A stretch of 64,000 nt of DNA from Lachnospiraceae bacterium (GTDB lineage: Bacteria > Bacillota > Clostridia > Lachnospirales > Lachnospiraceae). Numbering within the stretch: the stretch's first letter is position 1; each line of letters begins with the position of its first letter. The notes beneath the pieces were generated by a model that saw only the letters and a list, made by a program, of their open reading frames with translations, searched no databases and was not told where the DNA came from. Shown here piece by piece: positions 37,125 to 62,849 of the stretch. The stretch is taken from contig JAILAN010000101.1 of the NCBI GenBank assembly GCA_024681595.1, positions 1,976 to 65,975 on the forward strand, in the 5' to 3' direction. A program made the translations under genes and the position numbers.

Positions 37125-38288
37125 GTGGGAGATTTAAGATCGACTGTAGCTGTCATACCATGTGACGACTATGATGAAGAAAAGGTATACAGATCATTAA
37201 AAACAGGGATAGATGCCCTTGGAGGGATTGAATGCTTCGTAAGACCGGATGAAAAGATACTGGTAAAACCCAATCTTTTAAGTGCAGCTACTCCAGATAA
37301 AGCATTGACTACACATCCTTCCGTTCTTAAGGCAGTACTCAGGATACTTAATGAATACGGATGCGACGATGTAAAACTGGGAGATTCACCGGGACATGGC
37401 AGCTGTGAAGGTGCTGTCAGAACCTTAGGCCTGAAAGAGGCTGAAATGTCCGGAGCCGTGATCACACCTATGAATGAAGAAATTCACGTGAATTTTGCGG
37501 ACGGCATAACCTGCAGGGATTTTTATTTCTGCAAAGAAATTTTGGAATCAGATGCGATCATCAATGTGTGCAAGATGAAGACGCATGCACTGGAGAGAAT
37601 AACAGGGGCTGTCAAGAACGTATACGGATTCATATGCGGATATCGCAAGGCACAGGGACATGTTAAATTTCCAAATGATACAGTATTTGCGCGCATGCTT
37701 GCGGATATACACCGCTATACAAAACCCAGATTGCATATTATGGACGGGATTGTTGCAATGGAAGGAAATGGACCGGCTGCAGGTACTCCGGTTAACATGA
37801 ATGTTCTTATTGTATCAGACGATCCGGTTGCTGTGGATACGGTATTCTGCTATCTTATAAATCTTGATCCCGAGATCGTACCTACCAATTCTCAGGGAAT
37901 GAGAATGGGTATTGGAAATGATGAGGAAGAAAAGATAGATATTCTGCTTTGCCAGAATAATGACACCGTGAAGTTAAGCCCCGGCGAACTTTTTGCCATG
38001 CTTGGCAAAGGGGACTATGATGTGAGCAGGAAACGTCCCCCCAAAAGCTTCTTGAGCAGATACTCGGGCCTGATGACTCGGCTGCAGAAACGCCCGGTCA
38101 TAGACAGGTCTTTATGCGTCAAGTGCGGAATCTGTGTCGACCATTGTCCGGTTCCGGGCAAGGCGGTAGACTTTAAAAACGGTAAAGACAAGCCGCCGGT
38201 TTATGATTATTCAAAATGTATCAGATGTTATTGCTGCCAGGAGATGTGCCCCAGACATGCAATAAAACCAGGCAGAGGTATTATATGA
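37125..38288 (+). CDS. DUF362-domain protein with a C-terminal 2x[4Fe-4S] ferredoxin module
   Basis: 'VLVKPNLL' and 'HIMDGIVAMEGNGP' are DUF362 motifs. Fe-S cluster motifs: 'CVKCGICVDHCP' and 'CIRCYCCQEMCP'. GTG start. Confidence 0.75.
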   Translation: MGDLRSTVAVIPCDDYDEEKVYRSLKTGIDALGGIECFVRPDEKILVKPNLLSAATPDKALTTHPSVLKAVLRILNEYGCDDVKLGDSPGHGSCEGAVRTLGLKEAEMSGAVITPMNEEIHVNFADGITCRDFYFCKEILESDAIINVCKMKTHALERITGAVKNVYGFICGYRKAQGHVKFPNDTVFARMLADIHRYTKPRLHIMDGIVAMEGNGPAAGTPVNMNVLIVSDDPVAVDTVFCYLINLDPEIVPTNSQGMRMGIGNDEEEKIDILLCQNNDTVKLSPGELFAMLGKGDYDVSRKRPPKSFLSRYSGLMTRLQKRPVIDRSLCVKCGICVDHCPVPGKAVDFKNGKDKPPVYDYSKCIRCYCCQEMCPRHAIKPGRGII

Positions 38289-39677: not shown

Positions 39678-41495
39678 ATGGTATCAAGAAGGCTTCAAAC
39701 AGCCGATAAGAGGGATAAAATGGGAATAAAGGAAAATCATTATAACGCTTTTATCAGTTACAGACATTCGGAACTTGACAGCAAAGTTGCGATCGAGGTA
39801 CACAGAAAACTCGAGCGATTTAAGCTACCTGCCAATATCAGAAAAAACTTCCCCAAGGATCATCAGAAGATAGAGCGTGTATTCAGAGATCAGGATGAAC
39901 TGCCTCTTGCTGATAATCTGTCTGATCCAATTGAACAGGCACTTCGAAATTCGGATTATCTGATCGTTATCTGTTCTCCCAGACTACCGGAATCCAAATG
40001 GTGTCAGAGGGAAATGGAGACATTTAAAAAACTGCACGGTCAGGACAGGATCCTGGCTATTTTGGCTGAGGGCGAACCGGAGGAATCATTTCCTGATGCA
40101 ATCTGTTATAAGGATGTGGTTTCCAAAGATGAGAACGGTAATGAGGTAATCAGTAAGATCCCGGTTGAACCGCTGGCGGCAGATGTAAGGGCTGATTCTC
40201 CCCGCAAGAGAAGCGCCATGATAAATGATGCGGTCTTAAGGCTGGCTGCACCGATGTTTAATCTGGGATATGATGACCTTAAACAAAGACACAGGGAACA
40301 GAGAATAAAAAGGATAGCAATAGCAACCAGCATCGCTACCGGAGTGTCTGTTATACTCGGCCTTATTTTTATGTGCCTGGCCCTTAAGATCAATTCCCAG
40401 AAGAAAGTTATAGAATCCCAACACGCAGAGCTGGAAAAACAATACGATATACAGCAGGAAAAGTATTGCGAGTCCATGAACATCGTTTCGGAGGATCTGC
40501 TGAAACAGGGCCTGAAAAAAGAGGCGGTTTATGCGATCAGAAGTGCAATGCCGGATTCGGACAAGGATGATTCGAAACCTCTGCTTCCGTCAAACATTAA
40601 GACCCTTACGCAGACACTGAATATTTATGATCTGAATGTTTTCGTTCCGTCGGATATAATCCCTGTGGATGATTTTGATACTACAAGATTTGATTCCTAC
40701 TACGGAGATTATGACTTCCTGGTCGAATATATGGGCGGCCAGACTATAATGTGCTCCGGACAATATGATCGTGATCATATACTGCTGATAACTGATTCCT
40801 GCAGATTCTTTTTGTATGATACTGAAGAGAATGTCCTTCTGGATTATACCAGAGGTCTCTTTAACAATCCTCCTGAGGGCTATGTCTTTGGGGCTGCATA
40901 TGAGGACGGGGAGATATTTATTCAGTTTAATGATGCGGATTATGTTTCATGCTTTGAGATCAAAACACCGGATGGTCTTGAAACGGCCGGACAGATCGCT
41001 GTTAAGGACATAAGAACATCCCGCGGCCTTAATATAGTTGAAGACGGTGAAGATATAATATCTGATGACGGTGAATATGTAATGAGGCTGGGAATCGACC
41101 ATTCACTTGAGGTTTATAAGGCCGATGAGGATGAACCGTTTAAGATCCTATATGATATCAGAGGAGAGTTTTATGATCTTATCAGTACTGATAACGGCAA
41201 TAAATATATCCTCCGCGGAGTCGGATCGTCCTCGCTCCTTTTTAATGAAGAGTTTGACATAATAGCTGAAATACCGTATTTTTATGAATGCGCGGATGAT
41301 GGTATGATCGTGCTCTATACGGTAGCGGATGACGCTACATACTATGATCTGTATTATGTTCCACTGGCCGATTATGATGATCTTATTGATGAGGCTGACA
41401 AGGAACTTAAAGGATTTAAACCATCCGAAGAATTTCTTGGGAAATATAAAATGCTGGATAATAAAACAGAAGATAGTGTGGGTGATATCGAATGA
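39678..41495 (+). CDS. Membrane-anchored TIR-domain protein (cytoplasmic N-terminal TIR, one TM, extracytoplasmic beta-rich C-terminal domain)
   Basis: 'YNAFISYRHSELD', 'SDYLIVICSP', 'ESKWCQREMETF' (Glu codon at 40011-40013) and 'EPLAADVR' are TIR hallmarks. TM segment 'IAIATSIATGVSVILGLIFMCLALKI' is preceded by 'KQRHREQRIKR'. An alternative start is ATG 39720. Confidence 0.75.
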   Translation: MVSRRLQTADKRDKMGIKENHYNAFISYRHSELDSKVAIEVHRKLERFKLPANIRKNFPKDHQKIERVFRDQDELPLADNLSDPIEQALRNSDYLIVICSPRLPESKWCQREMETFKKLHGQDRILAILAEGEPEESFPDAICYKDVVSKDENGNEVISKIPVEPLAADVRADSPRKRSAMINDAVLRLAAPMFNLGYDDLKQRHREQRIKRIAIATSIATGVSVILGLIFMCLALKINSQKKVIESQHAELEKQYDIQQEKYCESMNIVSEDLLKQGLKKEAVYAIRSAMPDSDKDDSKPLLPSNIKTLTQTLNIYDLNVFVPSDIIPVDDFDTTRFDSYYGDYDFLVEYMGGQTIMCSGQYDRDHILLITDSCRFFLYDTEENVLLDYTRGLFNNPPEGYVFGAAYEDGEIFIQFNDADYVSCFEIKTPDGLETAGQIAVKDIRTSRGLNIVEDGEDIISDDGEYVMRLGIDHSLEVYKADEDEPFKILYDIRGEFYDLISTDNGNKYILRGVGSSSLLFNEEFDIIAEIPYFYECADDGMIVLYTVADDATYYDLYYVPLADYDDLIDEADKELKGFKPSEEFLGKYKMLDNKTEDSVGDIE

Positions 41496-43462
41496 AAAAA
41501 AGGTTGTTTCTTATTCTGACCATAGTCTTATTATGTCTTGGGTTATGTGCGTGCAGCAAGACCTCGTCCAAGAATGATAAGGACGATCTTGAAGAAACCG
41601 AAGAAGAGGACAGTTCTTCAAAAAAGAAAAATAAGAAAAAGAAGGATAAAGATAAGGAAGATGGCGATGCGGTAAAGGTTTATTTTGAATCTGATTATCC
41701 GGAGGATCTGGATGATTATGAGGAATTTATCCTTGAAGAAGATGATCAATCCGTAAATATCGTTTATGCAGCATCAAAGAGCGTTAAAAATTTCAGTTTC
41801 TATGATATTTCATCAATAGATACCAAAGAAGACTCAGATGATTTTGAATATACAGGATATGAGATATATTCTGCTGATAAGCTGTCTTCGAAAAAACCTC
41901 TGGTTGTTACGCTGGTTTTCCATGGGGATATGCCGGAATATGGATTTTCCTATGATGACAGCGATGGTAACAGGCAGTATTTTCTGATCGGATTAAGCGG
42001 TAAAGACGGAAGCCTTAAGACAACTTCGATACCTGAGATAGTCATTTCCGAAGAATCTCCGCTCTTTGCCGATATGGAAAACTATCAGTTCTATTTTATG
42101 AGCGGAGCCGGCGGCTGGGAAACCAATATGAGAGTTTATGCTGACGGAAGCTTTGACGGAACATATTATGACTATGATATGGGAGATACCGGTCCGGGCT
42201 ATGAGGAGAACGGAACCGTATACTGGTGTGACTTTAACGGCAGACTCGGTAATCCGGTTGAAACAGATCTTAACTGTTATGAAGCAGACATCATTGAACT
42301 TAACTACGATGTAGAACCCGGCAAGGAAGTTATTGAAGACGGGGAACGAAAGATATACACAGGTGCTTATGGTCTGGAGAATGCTCAAAAACTTACGATC
42401 TATGCTCCGGAGATGAATACGAGTCTCTTGCCGGAGGATTACCTGAGCTGGGTGTACTGGGAATTCTATGATCCGGATCTTGGTGATATGGCATTGCCAG
42501 TTGAAATGCCGTTTTATGGTTTATTCAATGCAGAGGATGGATGCGGTTTCTATTCAGAAAGCCTACTGGTAAACAGGATCGTACTAAGCAATACAGTTAA
42601 GCTGCCGGGAACCGAAAACATTACCGATAACTATGATTACCTTGACCAGACATATGAAATAAAAGACAGAAACGAAGAACTCGGTTTTACGATATACAAT
42701 ACATCCTTCTTTAATGAAGAGCATCTTTCGCTTGATGATAATCCGGATGAACTGGTTGAACTATGCTTTTCAAAGCTTGGTATAACCGATACGGAAAATA
42801 TCTATACCTTTGATAAAGAGGACGGAGAGTATACTTCGTCAATGTATAATCTGGTGCATATAGATTTTGGTAAGGACTGCCTGTATTCCATATATACTGA
42901 TATGGATTCCGGAGTGGACTATGAAGCTCGAATATATGTGGCGAATAACTTTATTTATTTCTATGCGATCATAATGGATGAGGACTCGATCCTTCAGGGA
43001 GAGGCAGAGTCATTTATCCTCGCGGGTGTCCAGGTATTTGGGATATATTCACAGGATCATTATAAATCCGGCATTATGGACAGCCCCGAAGGCAGCATAT
43101 CTGACACGATACTGGCAAATGTACAGAGCAAGACTTCAACAGACGGGAAAACATACTATTTCGTAGCGGATGAAGTAGAATGGGTTTCATCCGGTGACGA
43201 AGAGGCTATGAAGAAATACGGCCTGACAGAGGATGATATGTTCGATGATTATGCTATAGTTGGGCAGGACGGTAAGACCAGGGATTATAAGATAGCAGAC
43301 AGCGCGACATTCTTTCTCCAGTACGAACCCGGCCTTAAGAATCCTTATATGGGATATTCGATCATGGATTATCTCAATGACGGATCCAAAGAGATTATGA
43401 TGAAGCTCTATCTGAATGAAGACGGTGAAGTTATATTCGGGTATGAACCATACACGCCCTGA
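41492..43462 (+). CDS. Large orphan lipoprotein (no recognised domain)
   Basis: Lipobox 'LLCLGLCAC', then a Lys/Asp/Glu-rich linker and about 580 aa of Asp/Tyr/Glu-rich sequence. ATGA overlap with the TIR gene stop. Confidence 0.7.
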   Translation: MKKRLFLILTIVLLCLGLCACSKTSSKNDKDDLEETEEEDSSSKKKNKKKKDKDKEDGDAVKVYFESDYPEDLDDYEEFILEEDDQSVNIVYAASKSVKNFSFYDISSIDTKEDSDDFEYTGYEIYSADKLSSKKPLVVTLVFHGDMPEYGFSYDDSDGNRQYFLIGLSGKDGSLKTTSIPEIVISEESPLFADMENYQFYFMSGAGGWETNMRVYADGSFDGTYYDYDMGDTGPGYEENGTVYWCDFNGRLGNPVETDLNCYEADIIELNYDVEPGKEVIEDGERKIYTGAYGLENAQKLTIYAPEMNTSLLPEDYLSWVYWEFYDPDLGDMALPVEMPFYGLFNAEDGCGFYSESLLVNRIVLSNTVKLPGTENITDNYDYLDQTYEIKDRNEELGFTIYNTSFFNEEHLSLDDNPDELVELCFSKLGITDTENIYTFDKEDGEYTSSMYNLVHIDFGKDCLYSIYTDMDSGVDYEARIYVANNFIYFYAIIMDEDSILQGEAESFILAGVQVFGIYSQDHYKSGIMDSPEGSISDTILANVQSKTSTDGKTYYFVADEVEWVSSGDEEAMKKYGLTEDDMFDDYAIVGQDGKTRDYKIADSATFFLQYEPGLKNPYMGYSIMDYLNDGSKEIMMKLYLNEDGEVIFGYEPYTP

Positions 43463-52033: not shown

Positions 52034-52729
52034 TTATATGTGAATTCGACGCTTGAGTTCGTGCTGTGCACTTTTGCCGCCAAATAGTATGGCGCCGAAA
52101 GCAGACAGGCATGAGACACCAGAGCATATGAGAGGCATAAGGAATATATGGATCTTTCCGGCAAAATACAGTGTCAATATGGCTATAGAACATATAGCCA
52201 TCAAAAGCAGCAGCAAAAGATAACTCTGCCAGCGGCTTTTGTTAAGTATCATGAGGAAAAATACGAGCCCGTCACCGAGCAGTATTATTCCGGGAATAGC
52301 CCATTGCAAAGACCAGCCGTGCATGCCGTTGGTATAATCGATGATCAGAAGAAAGATCATGGTGATCATAAGCTGAAGACCTACCTTGGCGGCAAATCCC
52401 GAATCATATGTAACCCAGTAGACGAGAAACAGATAAATGTAGATCAATGATACTCCTGTTATCAAAGACCATGGATATGATACGTGAGTCATATAATTGA
52501 TGGATACCATGATAGCCTCTGCAACAACAAAGATAAACAATACCAGCTTCAGTATGAAGCGAAGTATCTTTTGGCGCTTCTGAACGTTGGGATAATATGA
52601 AGCATCTCCGAATCGCGCTCTAATGTGGCTTTCTTCATCACTGTTTATTTCTTCGGTAACACAACTGCACAGAGGACAAACCTCCTCGTTATGATACAGG
52701 GTTATTTTGCAGGAAGGACACCGTGTCAT
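52034..52729 (-). CDS. Zinc-ribbon membrane protein (DUF6320-like)
   Basis: N-terminal 'CPSCKITLYHNEEVCPLCSC' followed by about 6 TM segments. 4-nt overlap with the upstream gene. Confidence 0.65.
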   Translation of the reverse strand: MTRCPSCKITLYHNEEVCPLCSCVTEEINSDEESHIRARFGDASYYPNVQKRQKILRFILKLVLFIFVVAEAIMVSINYMTHVSYPWSLITGVSLIYIYLFLVYWVTYDSGFAAKVGLQLMITMIFLLIIDYTNGMHGWSLQWAIPGIILLGDGLVFFLMILNKSRWQSYLLLLLLMAICSIAILTLYFAGKIHIFLMPLICSGVSCLSAFGAILFGGKSAQHELKRRIHI

Positions 52730-54039
52730 GTATTATCCTCCATATATTCGTTAGTCTCGATCATCACATCTATTCCTTCCGATGCCATGATCCGGAAAAA
52801 TCTCTTCTGTATGGATACATCAGCAAGTTTGGAAGTGAAATTTACTGTAAAAATTCCGTTACAGCAAACTATAGTGCCTTTGATATCCTGACCTTTGGAG
52901 AGGGCCAGCATGGCATAGATCCTGTCAACGTACTTATCATATGGCTCGCGGAACTTTACATCTCCGATATTGGTCATCGTTGAAGTTGCTTTGTCGGCAG
53001 TTGCATAATATACACTTCGTATAGCGATATTCTTAATAAACAGAGGTATAGGACGTAGGAATACATTCTGCTCATTTGACACGTTATAGGACAAAATCGT
53101 ATCAAGATTATCCTTAGTCATCTGAGACTTAAGGCTTTCTGAAACGATCTTAAGAACATCGTTAAACGTATATTCCCTGTCTTCGGGCCTGAATGATGCC
53201 ATTGTCATGGCAAAGAAGTTTTTAACGGTGCTTGACCCGTAAAAGGAGCGCAGATCAACAGGAACACAGCAGTTAATGGGCCTTGCAGAAGGTGCGCCTT
53301 TAAGATATTCGACGTATATTGAATATACAAAGACTGATACCAGAAACTGGTTAATAGTGACTCCGTACTTTTTGGCAACTGTTTTTATATCATCCAGTCT
53401 GAAACAGCCATGAATGAGTTTCATTTCCCCTTTGGGGAGTTTTTCTCCTTTGATGATCACAGCTTTGCCGCCACGATAAGCTTCATCATGGCTTTTTGCA
53501 CTTTTAAAGCTCTTAAGATACGAATCTTCCATGTCGAGTGTCACACCGGGGGAGAGTCTGTCTTTTTCTCCGGACAGTTCATCGGGATGTGACAGTCTCA
53601 GATACTGATAGACCAGTTCTTTTAGAAACAGCAGACCGCCGTATCCGTCTGTAAGAGCATGAAATACCTCCAGATTGATACGTTTTTTATAATATGTGAC
53701 ACGAAACATATAATGATTGTTTCGGCTTTTATTTATATATGTACCGGGATATGAGTTTTCTTCTGTTACTTTGGGAGGCTTTCTGTCATTTTCCTCAAAA
53801 TAATACCAGAAAATGCCCATTTTAAGACGCATACGGAAAGGAAGAAACTGCGGGAGCAGAATGTCCTGAGCCTGCTGGAGCAGATCTCCGTCAATTTCTT
53901 CTTTGAGCAGGGCGCTTATTCGATAGGTGCTGCTCATCTCCGAACTGGCGATAACAGGGAAAAGCAATGCTGTATTGTCGAGCTTTGCCCATGCAGGATG
54001 GTTCTTTGAAATTGACCCTTTGTTTTTTGGCGTTTTCAT
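52726..54039 (-). CDS. Condensation/alcohol-acetyltransferase-like HxxxD acyltransferase
   Basis: 'WAKLDNTALLFP' N-terminus and an intact 'HALTDGYGG' (HxxxDG) catalytic motif. 437 aa. Confidence 0.7.
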   Translation of the reverse strand: MKTPKNKGSISKNHPAWAKLDNTALLFPVIASSEMSSTYRISALLKEEIDGDLLQQAQDILLPQFLPFRMRLKMGIFWYYFEENDRKPPKVTEENSYPGTYINKSRNNHYMFRVTYYKKRINLEVFHALTDGYGGLLFLKELVYQYLRLSHPDELSGEKDRLSPGVTLDMEDSYLKSFKSAKSHDEAYRGGKAVIIKGEKLPKGEMKLIHGCFRLDDIKTVAKKYGVTINQFLVSVFVYSIYVEYLKGAPSARPINCCVPVDLRSFYGSSTVKNFFAMTMASFRPEDREYTFNDVLKIVSESLKSQMTKDNLDTILSYNVSNEQNVFLRPIPLFIKNIAIRSVYYATADKATSTMTNIGDVKFREPYDKYVDRIYAMLALSKGQDIKGTIVCCNGIFTVNFTSKLADVSIQKRFFRIMASEGIDVMIETNEYMEDNT

Positions 54040-57013: not shown

Positions 57014-57598
57014 ATGCCGGACAGATCGGATCTGATTGTCGGCGGATATTTTTTCGGTTCATTCGAGGATTCCGCCATAGCGCAAAAAGAACTTAAGAAT
57101 GCAAAATATCTTGAAGAAAGACTGAATTCAATGAGACCGTCACAGATGAAGTCAGTCTATGACAAGATGCTTGACGAAAAGGTTTTTTCGACTCCGGTCG
57201 GATGGGAATACCTTAAGTATTTAAGAGGCAGGGTCGTTCAATCCGGAATAGACGAAAGCGAGATCCGGCCGATACCGCTGTATATTAATTTCAGTGCACA
57301 GAAAGAGGATTCTACAGACAGGCCGGGAGATCATATTGCCAGAGAACGGATACGTCCTTCATCACGCAGAAGAAATACTGTAAAGGACATCCTTAAGATA
57401 TCCGTTATAGCGAATGTTTTTCTGCTTATACTGGTTATATTGATGTTTGTTATTACGATCAAATCTGATAATCCGAATATCCTCAATTATAAGGAGGCTA
57501 TAATTAATGAATATGCCTCGTGGGAGGAGGAACTGGATGCCAGAGAAGAAGCGATAAAGGAAAAGGAGAAAGAGCTTGAAGATACTGGTAGTCGATGA
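57014..57598 (+). CDS. Hypothetical single-TM protein
   Basis: 194-aa ORF with one TM segment ('ISVIANVFLLILVILMFVITI') and a Glu/Lys-rich tail. It overlaps the next gene by 23 nt. I recognise no domain. Confidence 0.5.
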   Translation: MPDRSDLIVGGYFFGSFEDSAIAQKELKNAKYLEERLNSMRPSQMKSVYDKMLDEKVFSTPVGWEYLKYLRGRVVQSGIDESEIRPIPLYINFSAQKEDSTDRPGDHIARERIRPSSRRRNTVKDILKISVIANVFLLILVILMFVITIKSDNPNILNYKEAIINEYASWEEELDAREEAIKEKEKELEDTGSR

Positions 57599-58280
57599 TG
57601 AGCCCAGAATGAGAAAACTGGTCAGCGACTTTCTGGTCAATAATGATTTTTCCGTAATCGAAGCATCAAATGGCCGTGAAGCACTAAACAGATTCTATGA
57701 GGAAGCCGATATATCATTAGTCATTCTTGATGTAATGATGCCGGAGATAGACGGCTATGAGGTTCTGCGAAGGATTAGAGAGAACTCTAAAGTTCCGGTC
57801 ATAATGCTGACTGCAAAGTCGGATGAAAAGGATGAGCTGCTAAGCTTTTCACTGGGAGTTGATGAGTTTGTTTCCAAACCGTTCAGCCCTAAAGTTCTTG
57901 TGGCAAGGGTTAACGCCATTTTGAGGCGAACAACTGCCGACGGCTCTGCACAGAGGATAGAATCGGGCGGCATCGTTATTGATAAACTTTCCCACCGCGT
58001 TCTTATCGATGATAAAGAAATCGAACTCAGCTATAAGGAATTCGAGCTTCTTTCTTTTTTTATGGAGAATAAAGGCGTTGCCCTGTCCAGGGACAAGATT
58101 CTGAACTCTGTATGGAATTATGATTATTTTGGTGATGCCAGAACAATAGATACACATGTCAAAAAACTCCGTGCGAAACTCGGAGAGCACGGCAATAACA
58201 TAAAAACAATTTGGGGAATCGGGTACAAGTTTGAAGTGACGGAAAAGGAGAGAGAGTATGAGTCTGGTCAAAACAAATGA
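57576..58280 (+). CDS. OmpR-family response regulator (REC + winged helix), no adjacent histidine kinase
   Basis: '[12 protein letters not shown]...[13 protein letters not shown]' and '[15 protein letters not shown]...[12 protein letters not shown]'. TTG start with AGGAG 7 nt upstream. Confidence 0.9.
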
Positions 58281-60192
58281 GAACTGTATCGGATGTAACA
58301 AATGCATCAAGGCCTGCAGCTGTATCGGCGCCAATATTGCCGCCGAAAAAGATGGGAGAAATACTATTCAGGTTGATCCGAAAAAGTGTATTGCATGCGG
58401 TGCCTGTATAGATGCATGTGAACACGGCGCCAGAGAGTATTTGGATGATGTTGATGTTTTCTTTGAAGACCTCAGACGCGGAGAAAAGATCTCCGTCCTT
58501 ATAGCGCCTGCATTTTTGGCAAATTATCCCAATGAATATGAAAAATATCTTGGAATGCTAAAGAAACTTGGCGTAAACAGGTTTATCAGTGTGTCTTTTG
58601 GAGCGGATATAACTACCTGGGGATATATCAAATACATAACTGAACGCAATTATTACGGCAGTATTTCACAGCCTTGTCCGGCTGTTGTCGGGTATATAGA
58701 GCGTTATCTTCCTGAAATGCTCCCGAAGTTAATGCCTGTTCAAAGCCCGATGATGTGTGGAGCCATATATGTTAAAAAGTATCTTAAAGTGTCTGACAAA
58801 CTAGCGTTTATAAGTCCCTGCATTGCCAAGAAAAATGAAATAGATGATCCCAACAACGGGGGGATTGTTTCTTATAATCTGACATTTTCTAAGCTGGTTG
58901 CTTATCTAAAGGAGCATCCTGTTAACGGTGCCGTACCCTATAAAGATGAGATCGAATACGGCCTGGGTTCGATATATCCGATGCCTGGCGGACTTAAAGA
59001 AAACGTGTACTGGCTTCTTGGAGAAGATGCACTTGTCCGCCAGATGGAAGGCGAGCACCATATGTACGAGTATTTAAGACGTAATAAGGATCGCATCTGC
59101 AATTCCAGAAATCCATATCTTTTTGTTGATGCTTTAAACTGCACTAATGGTTGTCTTTACGGTACCGGAGTCGATAACAGAAAGACTTTAAACGAAGATG
59201 TATTTATAAATATCCAGAAGATCCGTTCTAGCAGCAAGAACAATTCCAAAAAATCGGCATGGGGCAGAGATCTTACACCAAAGCAGAGGCTTGATGTTCT
59301 GAACAAGCAGTTTGCTGATCTTGATCTGAATGATTTTGTTCGTAAATATACTGACAGAAGCAAGGAGTGTGCATATAAAACTCCGAGTGAAACTCAGCTT
59401 AATTCGATCTTTGCAGAACTCAATAAGGATACCGAAGAAAAAAGACACATAGACTGCGGGTGCTGCGGATATGCTACATGCAGGGATATGGCTACTGCTA
59501 TATATAACGGATTCAATCATAAGGATAACTGCGTTCATTATATCAAGGATCTTGCCTTTGAAGAAAAAGAGAAGGCATTGAAGCTTAACGAGGAAGTAAA
59601 AAAGGCTCACGAAGAGATGAATGCCAAGAAGGAATCTCTTGGAGCCGGAATAAATGACAATTTTGATAATCTGCTTGAATCTATATCAGCCATAGAAAAG
59701 GCCAGTGAAGATAATGTTCATCAGACAGCCGGCATATCCGATTCAATGAATGATGTTGATGATTTTGCCAGAAATCTTAAAGAAGTATTGTCAAGCATCG
59801 AAGGTTATCTTGAAAAACTTGAGGCTAATAATGCCGATGTTATCGCCATATCGAGTCAGACAAATCTTCTTGCCCTGAACGCTTCGATAGAGGCAGCCAG
59901 AGCAGGAGAGGCCGGAAGAGGATTTGCGGTCGTGGCCGATGAGATCAAAAAACTGGCTGAAAATTCCAAGACTACAGCAGATGACAGTAATAAGAACAAT
60001 AACGACATTAAGGAAACTATCAATAAGCTGATCGAAGAATCCGGACGTTTGACAGAGATCGTTGACAGCGTTAATCTTCGAGCTCAGAGTCTGGTAGCTT
60101 CATCGGAAGAGACATCCGCTTCGATCAATATGATGCAAAACCTTACAAGGAACGTTGAGGAATCTCTTAAGCAGGTTCTTGACTCTGAATAA
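58258..60192 (+). CDS. [FeFe]-hydrogenase-like sensory domain (2x[4Fe-4S] + H-domain-like + extra Cys motif) fused to an MCP signalling domain, cytoplasmic
   Basis: '[11 protein letters not shown]' and '[11 protein letters not shown]'. H-cluster-type motifs: 'SQPCP' (vs TSCCP), 'SPCIAKKNE' (vs MPCxxKxxE), '[11 protein letters not shown]' (vs CxxGCxxGG). Extra Cys motif 'CGCCGYATC...C'. MCP hairpin '[37 protein letters not shown]'. No TM segment. Confidence 0.85.
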
Positions 60193-60247
60193 ATACATAA
60201 TACTTATCTGACAACGAAGCTACGTGCTGAGTGGAAAGGAGTTTGTA

Positions 60248-61213
60248 ATGAAAAAAATAGTTTACGGGATCATAGTTATGATCCTGGCATCTGTCGTGCT
60301 CGCTGGATGCGGAAAAAAAACAGAGGTTGAAGATGACACCCGGATCCGTGTGGGATCGCTTAAAGGTCCTACGTCAATCGGTATTATCAAAATGATACAC
60401 GAACAGGATCAGGGAGATTACAGTTTTACCATTGAGACGCAGGCTGATGTGCTGCTGTCTTCGATTGTGGCAGGTGATCTGGATATTGCACTGATCCCTG
60501 CAAATGTTGCTTCTGTGCTATATAACAAGACCTCCGGCGGAATCTCAGTCATAGATATCAATACTATGGGTGTTCTGTATATGGTCAGCGGAGATAAGGG
60601 TATTACCGATATGGCTGATCTGGAGGGACACACGGTTTATACTACCGGAGCTGGTTCCACACCGGAGTACGTCCTTCGATATCTGCTTAATGAGTATGGA
60701 CTAGGTGATAAGGTGAATATCGAGTTTAAATCCGAAGCAACTGAGGTTGCAGCATTGCTGTCTCAGGATCCTGAAGCGGTCGGAATGCTGCCTCAGCCTT
60801 TTGTAACGGCTGCTCTTAAGCAGAATGAAGCATTGTCGGTTGTCCTTGATATGACCAAGGAATGGGATGATCTTAACAATGATTCTTCACTAATTACCGG
60901 TGTTACGGTTGTCAGGAACGATTTTCTTAAACAACATCCGGCTGCCGTATCCAGATTCCTTGAAGATCATTCTGATTCGGTTTCTTTTGTTCACAGCGAT
61001 ACCAAGACAGCTGCCGGGTATGTTGTTGAAGCGGGTATCATTGAAAAGGAACCGGTTGCTGTAAGTGCAATTCCTAACTGCAATATAGTCTGCATTTCGG
61101 ATTCGGAAATGAAATCATTACTCTCGGGATACCTGAAGGTTCTTTATGATCAGGATCCTGCATCTGTGGGAGGCGATCTTCCCTCGGATGATTTTTACGC
61201 TGATATTAAATGA
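60248..61213 (+). CDS. ABC transporter substrate-binding lipoprotein (NMT1/SsuA/TauA-like)
   Basis: Lipobox 'SVVLAGCG'. 'IRVGSLKGPTSIG' and 'LDIALIPANVA' fit the NMT1-type periplasmic-binding fold. AAGGAG RBS before the ATG at 60248. Confidence 0.7.
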   Translation: MKKIVYGIIVMILASVVLAGCGKKTEVEDDTRIRVGSLKGPTSIGIIKMIHEQDQGDYSFTIETQADVLLSSIVAGDLDIALIPANVASVLYNKTSGGISVIDINTMGVLYMVSGDKGITDMADLEGHTVYTTGAGSTPEYVLRYLLNEYGLGDKVNIEFKSEATEVAALLSQDPEAVGMLPQPFVTAALKQNEALSVVLDMTKEWDDLNNDSSLITGVTVVRNDFLKQHPAAVSRFLEDHSDSVSFVHSDTKTAAGYVVEAGIIEKEPVAVSAIPNCNIVCISDSEMKSLLSGYLKVLYDQDPASVGGDLPSDDFYADIK

Positions 61214-62595
61214 ATAAAAAGCTAAATAAAGCGGTAATTCTGCTCGCTTGGTTATTCCTGTGGCAGATTACCGCATTTTTTGTTAACAACCCCATATACT
61301 TTGCTTCTCCGTTAGAAGTCCTTTTGGAGATTGTTTCCAAAGCTGCAGATCGTGGGTTCTGGCTTTCAATATGCGGATCGCTTTTAAGGATAACAACCGG
61401 ATTTATTATTTCAGGATCGCTGGCTTTTATAATGGCATTTGTATGCTTCAGATTTAAGTGTCTCAGAGATTTTCTGTCGCCTGCAGTTACTTTTTTTAAA
61501 TCAGTCCCGATAGCGGCTGTGGTTGTTGTGCTGCTGATTTGGTGGGGACCACGTTACCTTGTCCTTTGTATCAGCATGATGGTCGTTTTTCCGAATGTTT
61601 ACCATAATATGCTGACCGGGATATCTAATGCTGACAGATCTTTGATCGAGATGTCGGATGTTTTTAAAACCAGATGGATTGACAGGTTTTTATGGATATA
61701 TCGTCCGTCTTACCTTCCTTATCTGCATTCAGCGGTTTCGGTATCTTTGGGTATGTGTTTTAAATCCGGTATTGCTGCTGAAGTGATAGGATTGCCGGAA
61801 TTCAGCATCGGGGAACGACTGTACAGAGATAAGATATATCTAAATACTGCAGGTGTATTTGCGTGGATAGTAGTTGTTCTGATACTAAGTTCGGTAACTG
61901 AACGACTGATCGGAGTTTTACTTAAAAGACTGTCGAATGTGCCTTCATGTATAGATCTGACTGAAAGAGAAAATCACGGGAGAAAGTACGAAGCCGAAAA
62001 CAGAAAAATGACATCTTATTCTGTCATTGCAGACAGAATCATCAAAAAATATGATGATCGTGTAGTTATAGATACTGATCTTAAACTTATTCCAGGTCAG
62101 ATATACAGCATAAAAGCACCATCCGGTTCGGGAAAAACAACTCTTCTTAAAATCCTGTCCGGAATTTTGAAACCTGATAGCGGAACCGTACAGACCGGAT
62201 CGATCAGCATGGTTTTTCAGGATGACAGACTGATCCCAAATGCAAACGGATTGCGGAATCTGCGATATGCACTTTGCAGCGGGAACCTCAGGAAAGAATA
62301 TCTTAAACTTCTTCCGGCCGATACATTAGGGCTCCCTGCTTCATCCTTAAGCGGAGGCGAGAGAAGAAGACTTTGTATATTAAGGGCTATGCTAAGGCAT
62401 TCACAGATCGTGATCATGGATGAGCCTTTTGCAGGGCTTGATGAAGCAACTAAACAATATACTGCTGACTGGATATTGAAAAATCTTAACGGCAGAACGC
62501 TCATATATACCGCTCATGATCCGGATCCGGTCATTTGGCCCGGATCTGAGGAGATAAAGCTGATCGATAAGAAACGGCCTGCGAAGGGAGAATGA
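61210..62595 (+). CDS. Fused ABC permease + ATPase
   Basis: The N-terminal ~250 aa are a multi-TM permease. The C-terminal ~200 aa carry Walker A 'APSGSGKTT', signature 'LSGGERRR', Walker B 'IVIMDEPF' and H-loop 'TAHD'. ATGA overlap with the upstream gene. Confidence 0.8.
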   Translation: MNKKLNKAVILLAWLFLWQITAFFVNNPIYFASPLEVLLEIVSKAADRGFWLSICGSLLRITTGFIISGSLAFIMAFVCFRFKCLRDFLSPAVTFFKSVPIAAVVVVLLIWWGPRYLVLCISMMVVFPNVYHNMLTGISNADRSLIEMSDVFKTRWIDRFLWIYRPSYLPYLHSAVSVSLGMCFKSGIAAEVIGLPEFSIGERLYRDKIYLNTAGVFAWIVVVLILSSVTERLIGVLLKRLSNVPSCIDLTERENHGRKYEAENRKMTSYSVIADRIIKKYDDRVVIDTDLKLIPGQIYSIKAPSGSGKTTLLKILSGILKPDSGTVQTGSISMVFQDDRLIPNANGLRNLRYALCSGNLRKEYLKLLPADTLGLPASSLSGGERRRLCILRAMLRHSQIVIMDEPFAGLDEATKQYTADWILKNLNGRTLIYTAHDPDPVIWPGSEEIKLIDKKRPAKGE

Positions 62596-62849
62596 TTATG
62601 GATATGAGGATCGCACTTATAGGAGTGATAGTCACGGATAATTCAGTAAGCGGCGAACTGAATACATTGCTGTCCGGATACGGAGAATATATAATAGGCA
62701 GAATGGGCATACCTCATCATAGATTTAAAGAAGACGAGGTGGCTATAATAAGCATTGCCATCGAGGCTCCGCAAAGCACAATAAGTGCGCTTTCCGGAAA
62801 ACTGGGGATGATCAAAGGCGTATCGGCAAAAGTTCTTTATGCCGGATAG
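62592..62849 (+). CDS. TM1266-family small ACT-like protein (putative iron-only hydrogenase system regulator)
   Basis: About 85 aa. 'RIALIGVIV', 'IIGRMGIP' and 'ISALSGKLGMIKGVSAKV' match my recollection of the TM1266 family. The ATG at 62598 has better RBS spacing (GGGAG, 7 nt). Confidence 0.65.
   Translation: MIMDMRIALIGVIVTDNSVSGELNTLLSGYGEYIIGRMGIPHHRFKEDEVAIISIAIEAPQSTISALSGKLGMIKGVSAKVLYAG

Follow-up and report, generated by a model that had tools for sequence, protein, structure and literature searches.

A cytoplasmic [FeFe]-hydrogenase-like protein of HydDB Group C2 type as a candidate H2 chemoreceptor of rumen Lachnospiraceae

In the rumen and gut, both the balance of fermentation and the output of methane are controlled by H2 partial pressure. 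A bacterial receptor that directs movement by H2 has yet to be demonstrated, and the only demonstrated hydrogenotaxis is that of the methanogen Methanococcus maripaludis (PMC3817446). The obvious candidates are the [FeFe]-hydrogenases linked to methyl-accepting chemotaxis proteins (MCPs), which HydDB defined in 2016 as Group C2, 'chemotactic (putative)' (Sondergaard, Pedersen & Greening; PMC5037454), and which are represented by reference sequences from Ruminococcus flavefaciens (WP_028517519) and Treponema bryantii (WP_022931679) (PMC6776011). Both this class and the H2-chemoreceptor hypothesis have thus been in print since 2016; here, we add a further, well-defined clade. Its representative is encoded in a 64,000-nt stretch of DNA from a Lachnospiraceae bacterium (positions 1,976 to 65,975 of contig JAILAN010000101.1, assembly GCA_024681595.1; hereafter, the window). 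The gene, at positions 58258-60192 of the window on the + strand, specifies a 644-aa protein (hereafter, the sensor), exactly as delimited in an earlier reading of the letters alone (the sequence-only reading), which took the product for a cytoplasmic hydrogenase-like sensor fused to an MCP hairpin and correctly stated that MCP-linked 'group C' sensory hydrogenases had been catalogued.

TmHydS of Thermotoga maritima (group C / M2f), reportedly described by Chongdar et al. in 2018, is a putative sensory hydrogenase that relays via a PAS domain to a separate phosphatase/kinase partner. TamHydS of Thermoanaerobacter mathranii (group D / M2e, corresponding to HydDB C1) is an H-cluster protein whose Km for H2 is low (Land et al. 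2020, PMC8163306; Cabotaje et al. 2023, PMC10407848). It consists of two [4Fe-4S] sites, an H-domain, a Cx2Cx4Cx16C motif (C379/382/387/404), and a C-terminal helix, with no fused output domain. Cx2Cx4Cx16C is the motif reported for M2e and M2f sensory hydrogenases (PMC8163306). The soluble chemoreceptors offer a second comparison: Aer, Aer2, and HemAT combine an N-terminal cofactor-binding sensor (FAD-PAS, haem-PAS, or globin) with a C-terminal MCP hairpin, and Tm14 is likewise soluble and ends in such a hairpin. The sensor resembles these receptors in solubility and output, whereas its input is a putative FeS/H-cluster module and it has no HAMP domain.

Pfam searches resolved the sensor into four successive parts, with scores far above chance level. 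The F-domain (residues 1-60; 58258-58437) carries two ferredoxin-type [4Fe-4S] motifs, C10/C13/C16/C20 and C44/C47/C50/C54, and is matched by Fer4_7 at residues 9-58. The H-domain-like core (residues 77-305; 58486-59172), which is also recovered by profile alignment and by fold, is matched essentially end to end by Fe_hyd_lg_C (PF02906; residues 77-302, model positions 2-244 of 245, E value of 1.8e-29, 103.5 bits versus a cut-off of 22.1). A C-terminal FeS domain (residues 398-426; 59449-59535) is matched by PF04060 'FeS' with 29.1 bits, and the MCP signalling hairpin (59533-60186) by MCPsignal (PF00015; residues 530-640, E value of 7.7e-24, 84.9 bits versus 34.6). No transmembrane segment was found in the protein (maximum 19-residue Kyte-Doolittle mean of 1.03), nor did Pfam return a PAS domain in it. 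The composition proposed in the sequence-only reading (two ferredoxin-type four-cysteine motifs, an H-domain-like core, a canonical MCP hairpin, and no membrane-spanning stretch) is therefore borne out. The catalytic-hydrogenase models of NCBIfam scored well below their cut-offs (TIGR04105, 138.5 versus 450; TIGR02512, 91.2 versus 405.95).

Since a single-sequence search of the PDB yielded an alignment that stopped at motif L2, we built a profile from nine family members of ∼35% mutual identity and aligned it to the [FeFe]-hydrogenase CpI through motif L3. The four cluster cysteines named in the sequence-only reading, C140, C188, C295, and C299, fall in register with CpI C300, C355, C499, and C503 (the bridging cysteine), so that the misalignment set beforehand as refuting that reading was not observed. 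The L1 motif is the variant I-S-Q-P-C-P (residues 136-141; 58663-58680), in which P139 occupies the site of the proton-relay Cys299, as had also been proposed. L2 reads S-P-C-I-A-K-K-N-E (residues 186-194; 58813-58839), and L3 spans residues 291-304 (59128-59169); S186 and L293 stand at the M353 and M497 sites, respectively. The whole group A proton pathway is replaced (C299 by P139, E279 by Y123, E282 by Y126, and S319 by M159). In turn, the sensor retains the anchors for the CN ligands of the [2Fe] subcluster: K191 and E194 correspond to K358 and E361, P84-A85 to P231-S232, and S163-P164 to S323-P324. These conserved equivalents of K358, E361, P231, and P324 suggest, indirectly, that the sensor half binds an H-cluster. 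Y240 lies at the F417 position, as does Y223 in TmHydS. The C-terminal motif, a predicted fourth [4Fe-4S]-type site, is C400-x2-C403-x4-C408-x16-C425; the extra cysteine motif noted from the sequence is thus present and typical of HydS proteins, with a final spacing of x16 rather than the x17 first given.

A phmmer search with residues 1-440 retrieved 3359 representative clusters with E values of at most 1e-3, 771 of them at E ≤ 1e-30; from these, 130 representatives with 35-63% identity were aligned to assess conservation. Fifteen of the 16 cysteine ligands are invariant, namely seven of the eight in the F-domain, the four predicted to hold the H-cluster, and C400, C403, C408, and C425; the remaining one, C13, is kept in 129/130. 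C402, in contrast, occurs in just 8/130 and is therefore no ligand candidate. The family motifs are I-[S/A]-Q-P-C-P for L1 (Pro in 103/130), S-P-C-I-A-K-x-x-E for L2, and D-x-L-N-C-x-x-G-C-x-x-G-T-G for L3. K191, E194, and P84 are conserved in 122, 129, and 126 of the representatives, and Leu replaces the E252 of TamHydS in 115 (L246 in the sensor). Conservation is tighter still among the 43 MCP-fused clusters, in which [S/A]QPCP is found in 42, the equivalents of K358, E361, and P231 in all 43, Ser at the M353 site in 41, and Leu at the M497 and V423 sites in 42 each. As judged from these alignments, the CN-anchoring residues are strongly constrained and the catalytic proton relay has been lost, a pattern that matches those of TmHydS and TamHydS, both of which bind an H-cluster (PMC10055695, PMC8163306). 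Tyrosines recur in the family at the E279 site (109/130), the E282 site (70/130), and the F417 site (Tyr in 61 and Phe in 56 of 130), a set for which nothing comparable has been described in group C2; residues of the Y123/Y126/Y240 type could form an alternative proton or hydrogen-bond path to the H-cluster.

The N-terminal module is found upstream of diverse outputs. Among 60 diverse family members, Pfam identified MCPsignal in 21, HisKA/HATPase_c in 17, GGDEF in 16, EAL in nine, and SpoIIE in one, often together with PAS or receiver domains, and earlier work lists sigma-54 activators whose regulatory domains are Fer4, Fe_hyd_lg_C, and FeS (PMC6615313). Such swapping of output domains argues for the module being a genuine signal-input domain.

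Structure prediction agrees with the alignment to CpI. An AlphaFold2 (AF2) model of residues 1-445 (predicted local distance difference test [pLDDT] of 85.5, predicted template modelling score of 0.86) retrieved in Foldseek 50 top PDB matches that were all [FeFe]-hydrogenases, with E values down to 4e-16 and template modelling scores of 0.52-0.65 normalised to the query. The model shows these 445 residues folded like an M2-type [FeFe]-hydrogenase, with two predicted accessory [4Fe-4S] sites and an H-domain, and with the F-domain exposed at the surface as in catalytic enzymes. No HydS-type structure was among the PDB sequence or fold matches of the sensor. In the full-length model (pLDDT of 88.3), an unbroken helix of 123 residues (426-548) begins right after C425, turns at residue 549, and returns as helix 550-643, with neither a PAS nor a HAMP domain between the FeS domain and the MCP helix. 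The arms of the hairpin comprise ∼94 residues each and are preceded by a stalk of ∼29 residues. The tip, with its motif at residues 545-556 (59890-59925) spanning the turn, is canonical; it is a close match to that of T. maritima Tm1143 and nearly identical to those of flagellar-system MCPs. Alignment with the soluble receptor Tm14 (PDB 3G67) extends over 193 residues in each of the two proteins and is interrupted by a single short pair of gaps that compensate each other.

We compared the sensor by BLASTP with HydDB reference fragments taken from the supplement of a rumen hydrogenase census. The best matches were the C2 references, at 39.7% identity and 124 bits for a fragment of the H-domain core and at 36.4% identity and 119 bits for a fragment of the FeS-plus-MCP part, followed by C3 (61 bits), B (52 bits), and C1 (33 bits). 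Like the sensor, the C2 references display xQxCP at L1, SPCIAxKNE at L2, LxCxxGCxxG at L3, the Cx2Cx4Cx16C domain, and the fused MCP hairpin; they differ in lineage, the sensor being from rumen Lachnospiraceae, and the R. flavefaciens reference has Q-Q-C-P where the clade of the sensor has Q-P-C-P. MCPsignal lies in the same polypeptide as the hydrogenase-like module, the linkage by which C2 is recognised. By sequence, the sensor is thus of the HydDB [FeFe] Group C2 type.

For comparison with the characterised HydS enzymes, TamHydS was rebuilt from the coding sequence in the supplement of its paper, and 19/19 published residue numbers agreed. It is 23% identical to the sensor module by BLASTP (24% in the family alignment), has its best reference match in C1 (121 bits), and shares with the sensor its domain layout, the loss of Cys299, the changes of M353 to Ser and of M497 to Leu, and the spacing of the C-terminal FeS motif, which in both follows the H-domain as is typical of HydS proteins. 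In contrast, TamHydS has Ala137, E252 (the start of the group D proton path), and Ser at the E361 site where the sensor has Pro139, L246, and Glu194, and the family of the sensor bears, past L3 and ahead of the FeS domain, an insertion of ∼25 residues. Lacking the E252 path and carrying a fused output, the sensor departs from group D / M2e; it also has no PAS downstream of the FeS motif, the mark of M2f / HydDB C3, and neither the TSCCP motif nor the E279/S319/E282 pathway of the catalytic groups A and B. With TmHydS it has in common a putatively sensory role, the same accessory clusters, and the loss of the proton-relay cysteine, whereas A131, G177, and S267 of that protein correspond to P139, S186, and L293, and the FeS domain of the sensor enters the MCP helix directly. 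Across HydDB sensory sequences, the C299 position is occupied by Ala in ∼43%, Cys in 17%, Pro in ∼10%, and Ser in ∼10% (PMC10055695), which agrees with the sequence-only reading that loss of the relay residue is a trait of sensory proteins. The characterised HydS enzymes carry Ala, not Pro, at the P139 site; by its residue there, the sensor belongs to the Pro-containing minority of the sensory class.

Taken as a whole, the interpretation we favor, and on balance consider probable, is that of a soluble Group C2-type chemoreceptor with an H2-responsive H-cluster input; H2 sensing itself is proposed by analogy with the HydS enzymes. The sensor would be matured by HydEFG and so acquire an H-cluster, whose turnover would be slow, like those of TmHydS and TamHydS. 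Binding or oxidation of H2 would determine which redox and conformational state the H-cluster and the FeS relay adopt; this state may also mirror the H2/ferredoxin redox poise. Without the aid of PAS or HAMP adaptors, the change would pass via the C-terminal FeS domain to a receptor dimer and its coiled-coil hairpin, where it would alter CheA kinase activity and hence swimming bias. By these means, an H2-producing rumen fermenter could place itself along H2 gradients.

Several observations weigh against this proposal. Relay through the C-terminal cluster is the weakest and an uncertain step of the mechanism: the redox state of the corresponding TamHydS cluster does not respond to H2 (Schumann et al. 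2026, PMC13104023), so that a conformational signal may be at work instead of an electron-based one. The pocket is unusual in its Pro139, Leu293, and Leu246; a proline adjoining the cluster cysteine has no experimental precedent, and the M497L substitution in group A enzymes hampered [2Fe] insertion, yet TamHydS tolerates Leu at that site. Within the window, hydE/F/G and che genes are absent, and the sole radical-SAM open reading frame (ORF) looks MiaB-like by eye. The strict CheR/CheB methylation consensus has no match in the sensor, in which we found one loose methylation-type site, ASSEETSA at residue 614, aligned with ASTEEVTS of Tm1143. Finally, our literature searches turned up no study of a C2 protein at the biochemical or physiological level, in line with the sequence-only reading, and hence no published cofactor, H2-binding, or taxis experiment on these proteins.

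The alternative that survives best, although we consider it unlikely, is a redox- or energy-taxis receptor whose F-clusters exchange electrons with ferredoxin and report redox poise, the H-domain serving as an electron sink or buffer. The near-complete conservation of the F-domain cysteines and the exposure of that domain are compatible with such a role, as are the cytoplasmic location, shared with the energy-taxis receptors Aer and HemAT, and the silence of the TamHydS C-terminal cluster under H2. However, a plain redox sensor would have no need of the [2Fe]-specific equivalents of K358, E361, P231, and S323-P324, which are invariant in the MCP-fused clade. In practice, this explanation overlaps with an H2-responsive receptor, because H2 and ferredoxin poise are coupled via the H-cluster.

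Less likely still, in our judgment, is that the H-domain holds a [4Fe-4S] cluster only, as in Nar1/NARF-like proteins, and that the protein senses O2, reactive oxygen species, or NO for oxidant avoidance in a strict anaerobe. The unusual pocket, the wide shortfall from the catalytic-model cut-offs, and the lack of hydEFG in the window would all fit this idea. So would the 2019 rumen census, taken at face value, which gave no [FeFe]-hydrogenase and no C2 call for the isolates AC2028, P6A3, and XBB2008 (PMC6776011), all of which carry sensor orthologues of 71-77% identity. Screening of 1.37 Mb of retrieved orthologue loci, with candidates run against NCBIfam, indicated otherwise. In AC2028, a group B monomeric [FeFe]-hydrogenase (TIGR04105, 555.5 bits versus 450; motifs TSCCP, IGPCIAKK, and MVCPGGCVGGP) is encoded directly upstream of the orthologue (locus L086, 8199-9707), and in the metagenome-assembled genome RUG12474 (locus L018), HydF (TIGR03918, 561 bits versus 326) is encoded 3.5 kb from an 80%-identical orthologue. 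The clade thus possesses a maturation system and catalytic [FeFe]-hydrogenases, which counts in favor of the H2-responsive receptor. Each was seen near a sensor orthologue in 1/80 loci, about the chance expectation, which speaks against the H2-responsive receptor insofar as these adjacencies demonstrate presence in the clade and not functional coupling. Because AC2028 has a bona fide TIGR04105 enzyme, the census under-calls; we did not rely on it as evidence that the carriers lack [FeFe]-hydrogenases, and it appears to underestimate how many group B and C2 proteins rumen Lachnospiraceae carry. The conserved CN-anchoring Lys/Glu pair and Pro residues also tell against a [4Fe-4S]-only domain, and TamHydS, with Ser at M353, Leu at M497, and no C299, still takes up a functional H-cluster.

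It is very unlikely that the sensor works as proposed and the hairpin drives a non-motility Che-like pathway acting on cyclic di-GMP, biofilm, or gene expression: sister proteins do bear GGDEF, EAL, or histidine kinase outputs on the same module, neither flagellar nor che genes occur in the window, and the single methylation-type site is weak, but the hairpin tip is nearly identical to those of flagellar-system MCPs, and contigs of close relatives hold a CheW-REC (CheV-like) gene as well as further MCPs. A catalytic hydrogenase tethered to chemoreceptor arrays was ruled out because the proton pathway is absent and the catalytic-model scores are far under their cut-offs.

A bolder extension of the H2-responsive receptor model, which we put forward tentatively and hold to be somewhat improbable in its entirety, concerns the whole [S/A]-Q-P-C-P clade. 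It would constitute a self-contained cytoplasmic H2-input module, wired directly from its C-terminal [4Fe-4S] domain to MCP, histidine kinase, GGDEF, or EAL outputs; its MCP form would be the first H2 chemoreceptor of bacteria to be identified at the molecular level, and the rigid proline together with Y123/Y126/Y240 would create a new, essentially non-catalytic sensing environment for the H-cluster.

The sensor is widespread among relatives of its host. The top 120 database matches are full-length, with 75-87% identity, and all those with a source name come from Lachnospiraceae or Butyrivibrio. Among species-representative genomes, a scan returned at least 194 relatives, 80 of which (71-83% identity) were retrieved as loci; these 80 come nearly all from rumen Lachnospiraceae and include the cultured Hungate isolates P6A3, XBB2008, and AC2028. 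That at least 194 species genomes encode full-length orthologues of 71-87% identity is, on sequence grounds, a sign of purifying selection.

The genes that surround the sensor gene in the window form a cassette unrelated to it. The ATG of the sensor gene is preceded at 5 nt by a strong Shine-Dalgarno sequence, AAGGAGAG (58245-58252, + strand, read from the sequence), which lies within the 3′ end of an OmpR/PhoB-type response regulator gene (57576-58280, + strand) that overlaps the start of the sensor gene by 23 nt. Downstream on the same strand, a self-standing cassette (60224-62849) encodes an NMT1-type substrate-binding protein (SBP), a fused ABC permease-ATPase, and a TM1266-like protein; it occurs also without the sensor gene. 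The intergenic gaps around the sensor gene and this cassette contain no terminator-like site, so that the gene is probably cotranscribed with its surroundings. Response regulator and sensor genes are also probably cotranscribed, though their linkage is not conserved: the regulator was matched in 6/80 loci, and lay close upstream of the sensor gene in two of those. Likewise, the sensor-SBP-ABC adjacency occurs in 6/80 loci, the string of 194-aa protein, response regulator, sensor, and SBP was found only with the closest orthologue (87%), and the neighbourhoods of 77-83%-identical orthologues are unrelated to the window. Conserved synteny was therefore discarded as a functional link, the adjacency counts being attributable to shared ancestry or chance. 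The 194-aa protein, which has no family match and one predicted hydrophobic stretch, is encoded ahead of the response regulator (57014-58280 for the pair, + strand). No histidine kinase gene adjoins the regulator, which is thus an orphan, and the pair recurs with and without the sensor gene before the ABC cassette (loci L006, L089, L016, L042, and L046).

The TM1266-family gene (62592-62849) passes TIGR03959 with 93.8 bits. In Lachnospiraceae, its homologues invariably occupy third place in an NMT1-SBP/ABC/TM1266 cassette with no hydEFG nearby, and the string of response regulator, SBP, ABC, and TM1266 genes also exists without the sensor gene. This neighbour is therefore no evidence for maturases, and we rejected it both as a proxy for HydEFG and as a functional link. 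The cassette was seen in the window and at loci L087, L088, L089, L090, L009, and L013, and databases label its third product 'iron-only hydrogenase system regulator'. For this subfamily, whose protein looks like a small ACT-like regulator of the ABC importer, the name of the family may mislead.

Elsewhere in the window, the gene of a 605-aa protein that begins with a TIR domain (TIR_2, 47.7 bits; ThsB_TIR, 26.5 bits) shares 4 nt with an ORF for a lipoprotein-like product of 656 aa to which Pfam gave no match (39678-43462, + strand); the two may form an anti-phage defence pair. At 37125-38288 (+ strand) lies the gene of a further uncharacterised FeS protein, a DUF362 member that ends in a 2x[4Fe-4S] ferredoxin domain. 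At 52034-54039 (- strand), the gene of a DUF6320 membrane protein, whose N terminus bears a Cys-rich, zinc-ribbon-like motif, overlaps a 437-aa ORF without a Pfam match.

To the class proposed in 2016, this analysis contributes a sharply bounded Q-P-C-P/MCP clade, cultured carriers, and a structural hypothesis for signal transfer. The features open to experiment are the Q-P-C-P sequence beside the cluster cysteine, the invariant CN-anchoring residues, and the way in which the FeS domain leads straight into the signalling helix, and such experiments are feasible because AC2028, P6A3, and XBB2008 are cultured Hungate isolates. The finding also suggests that metagenomic hydrogenase censuses under-count group C2, since one of them gave no C2 call for these three carriers. 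If the H2-chemoreceptor hypothesis is true, rumen Lachnospiraceae would position themselves relative to H2 sources and to sinks such as methanogens.

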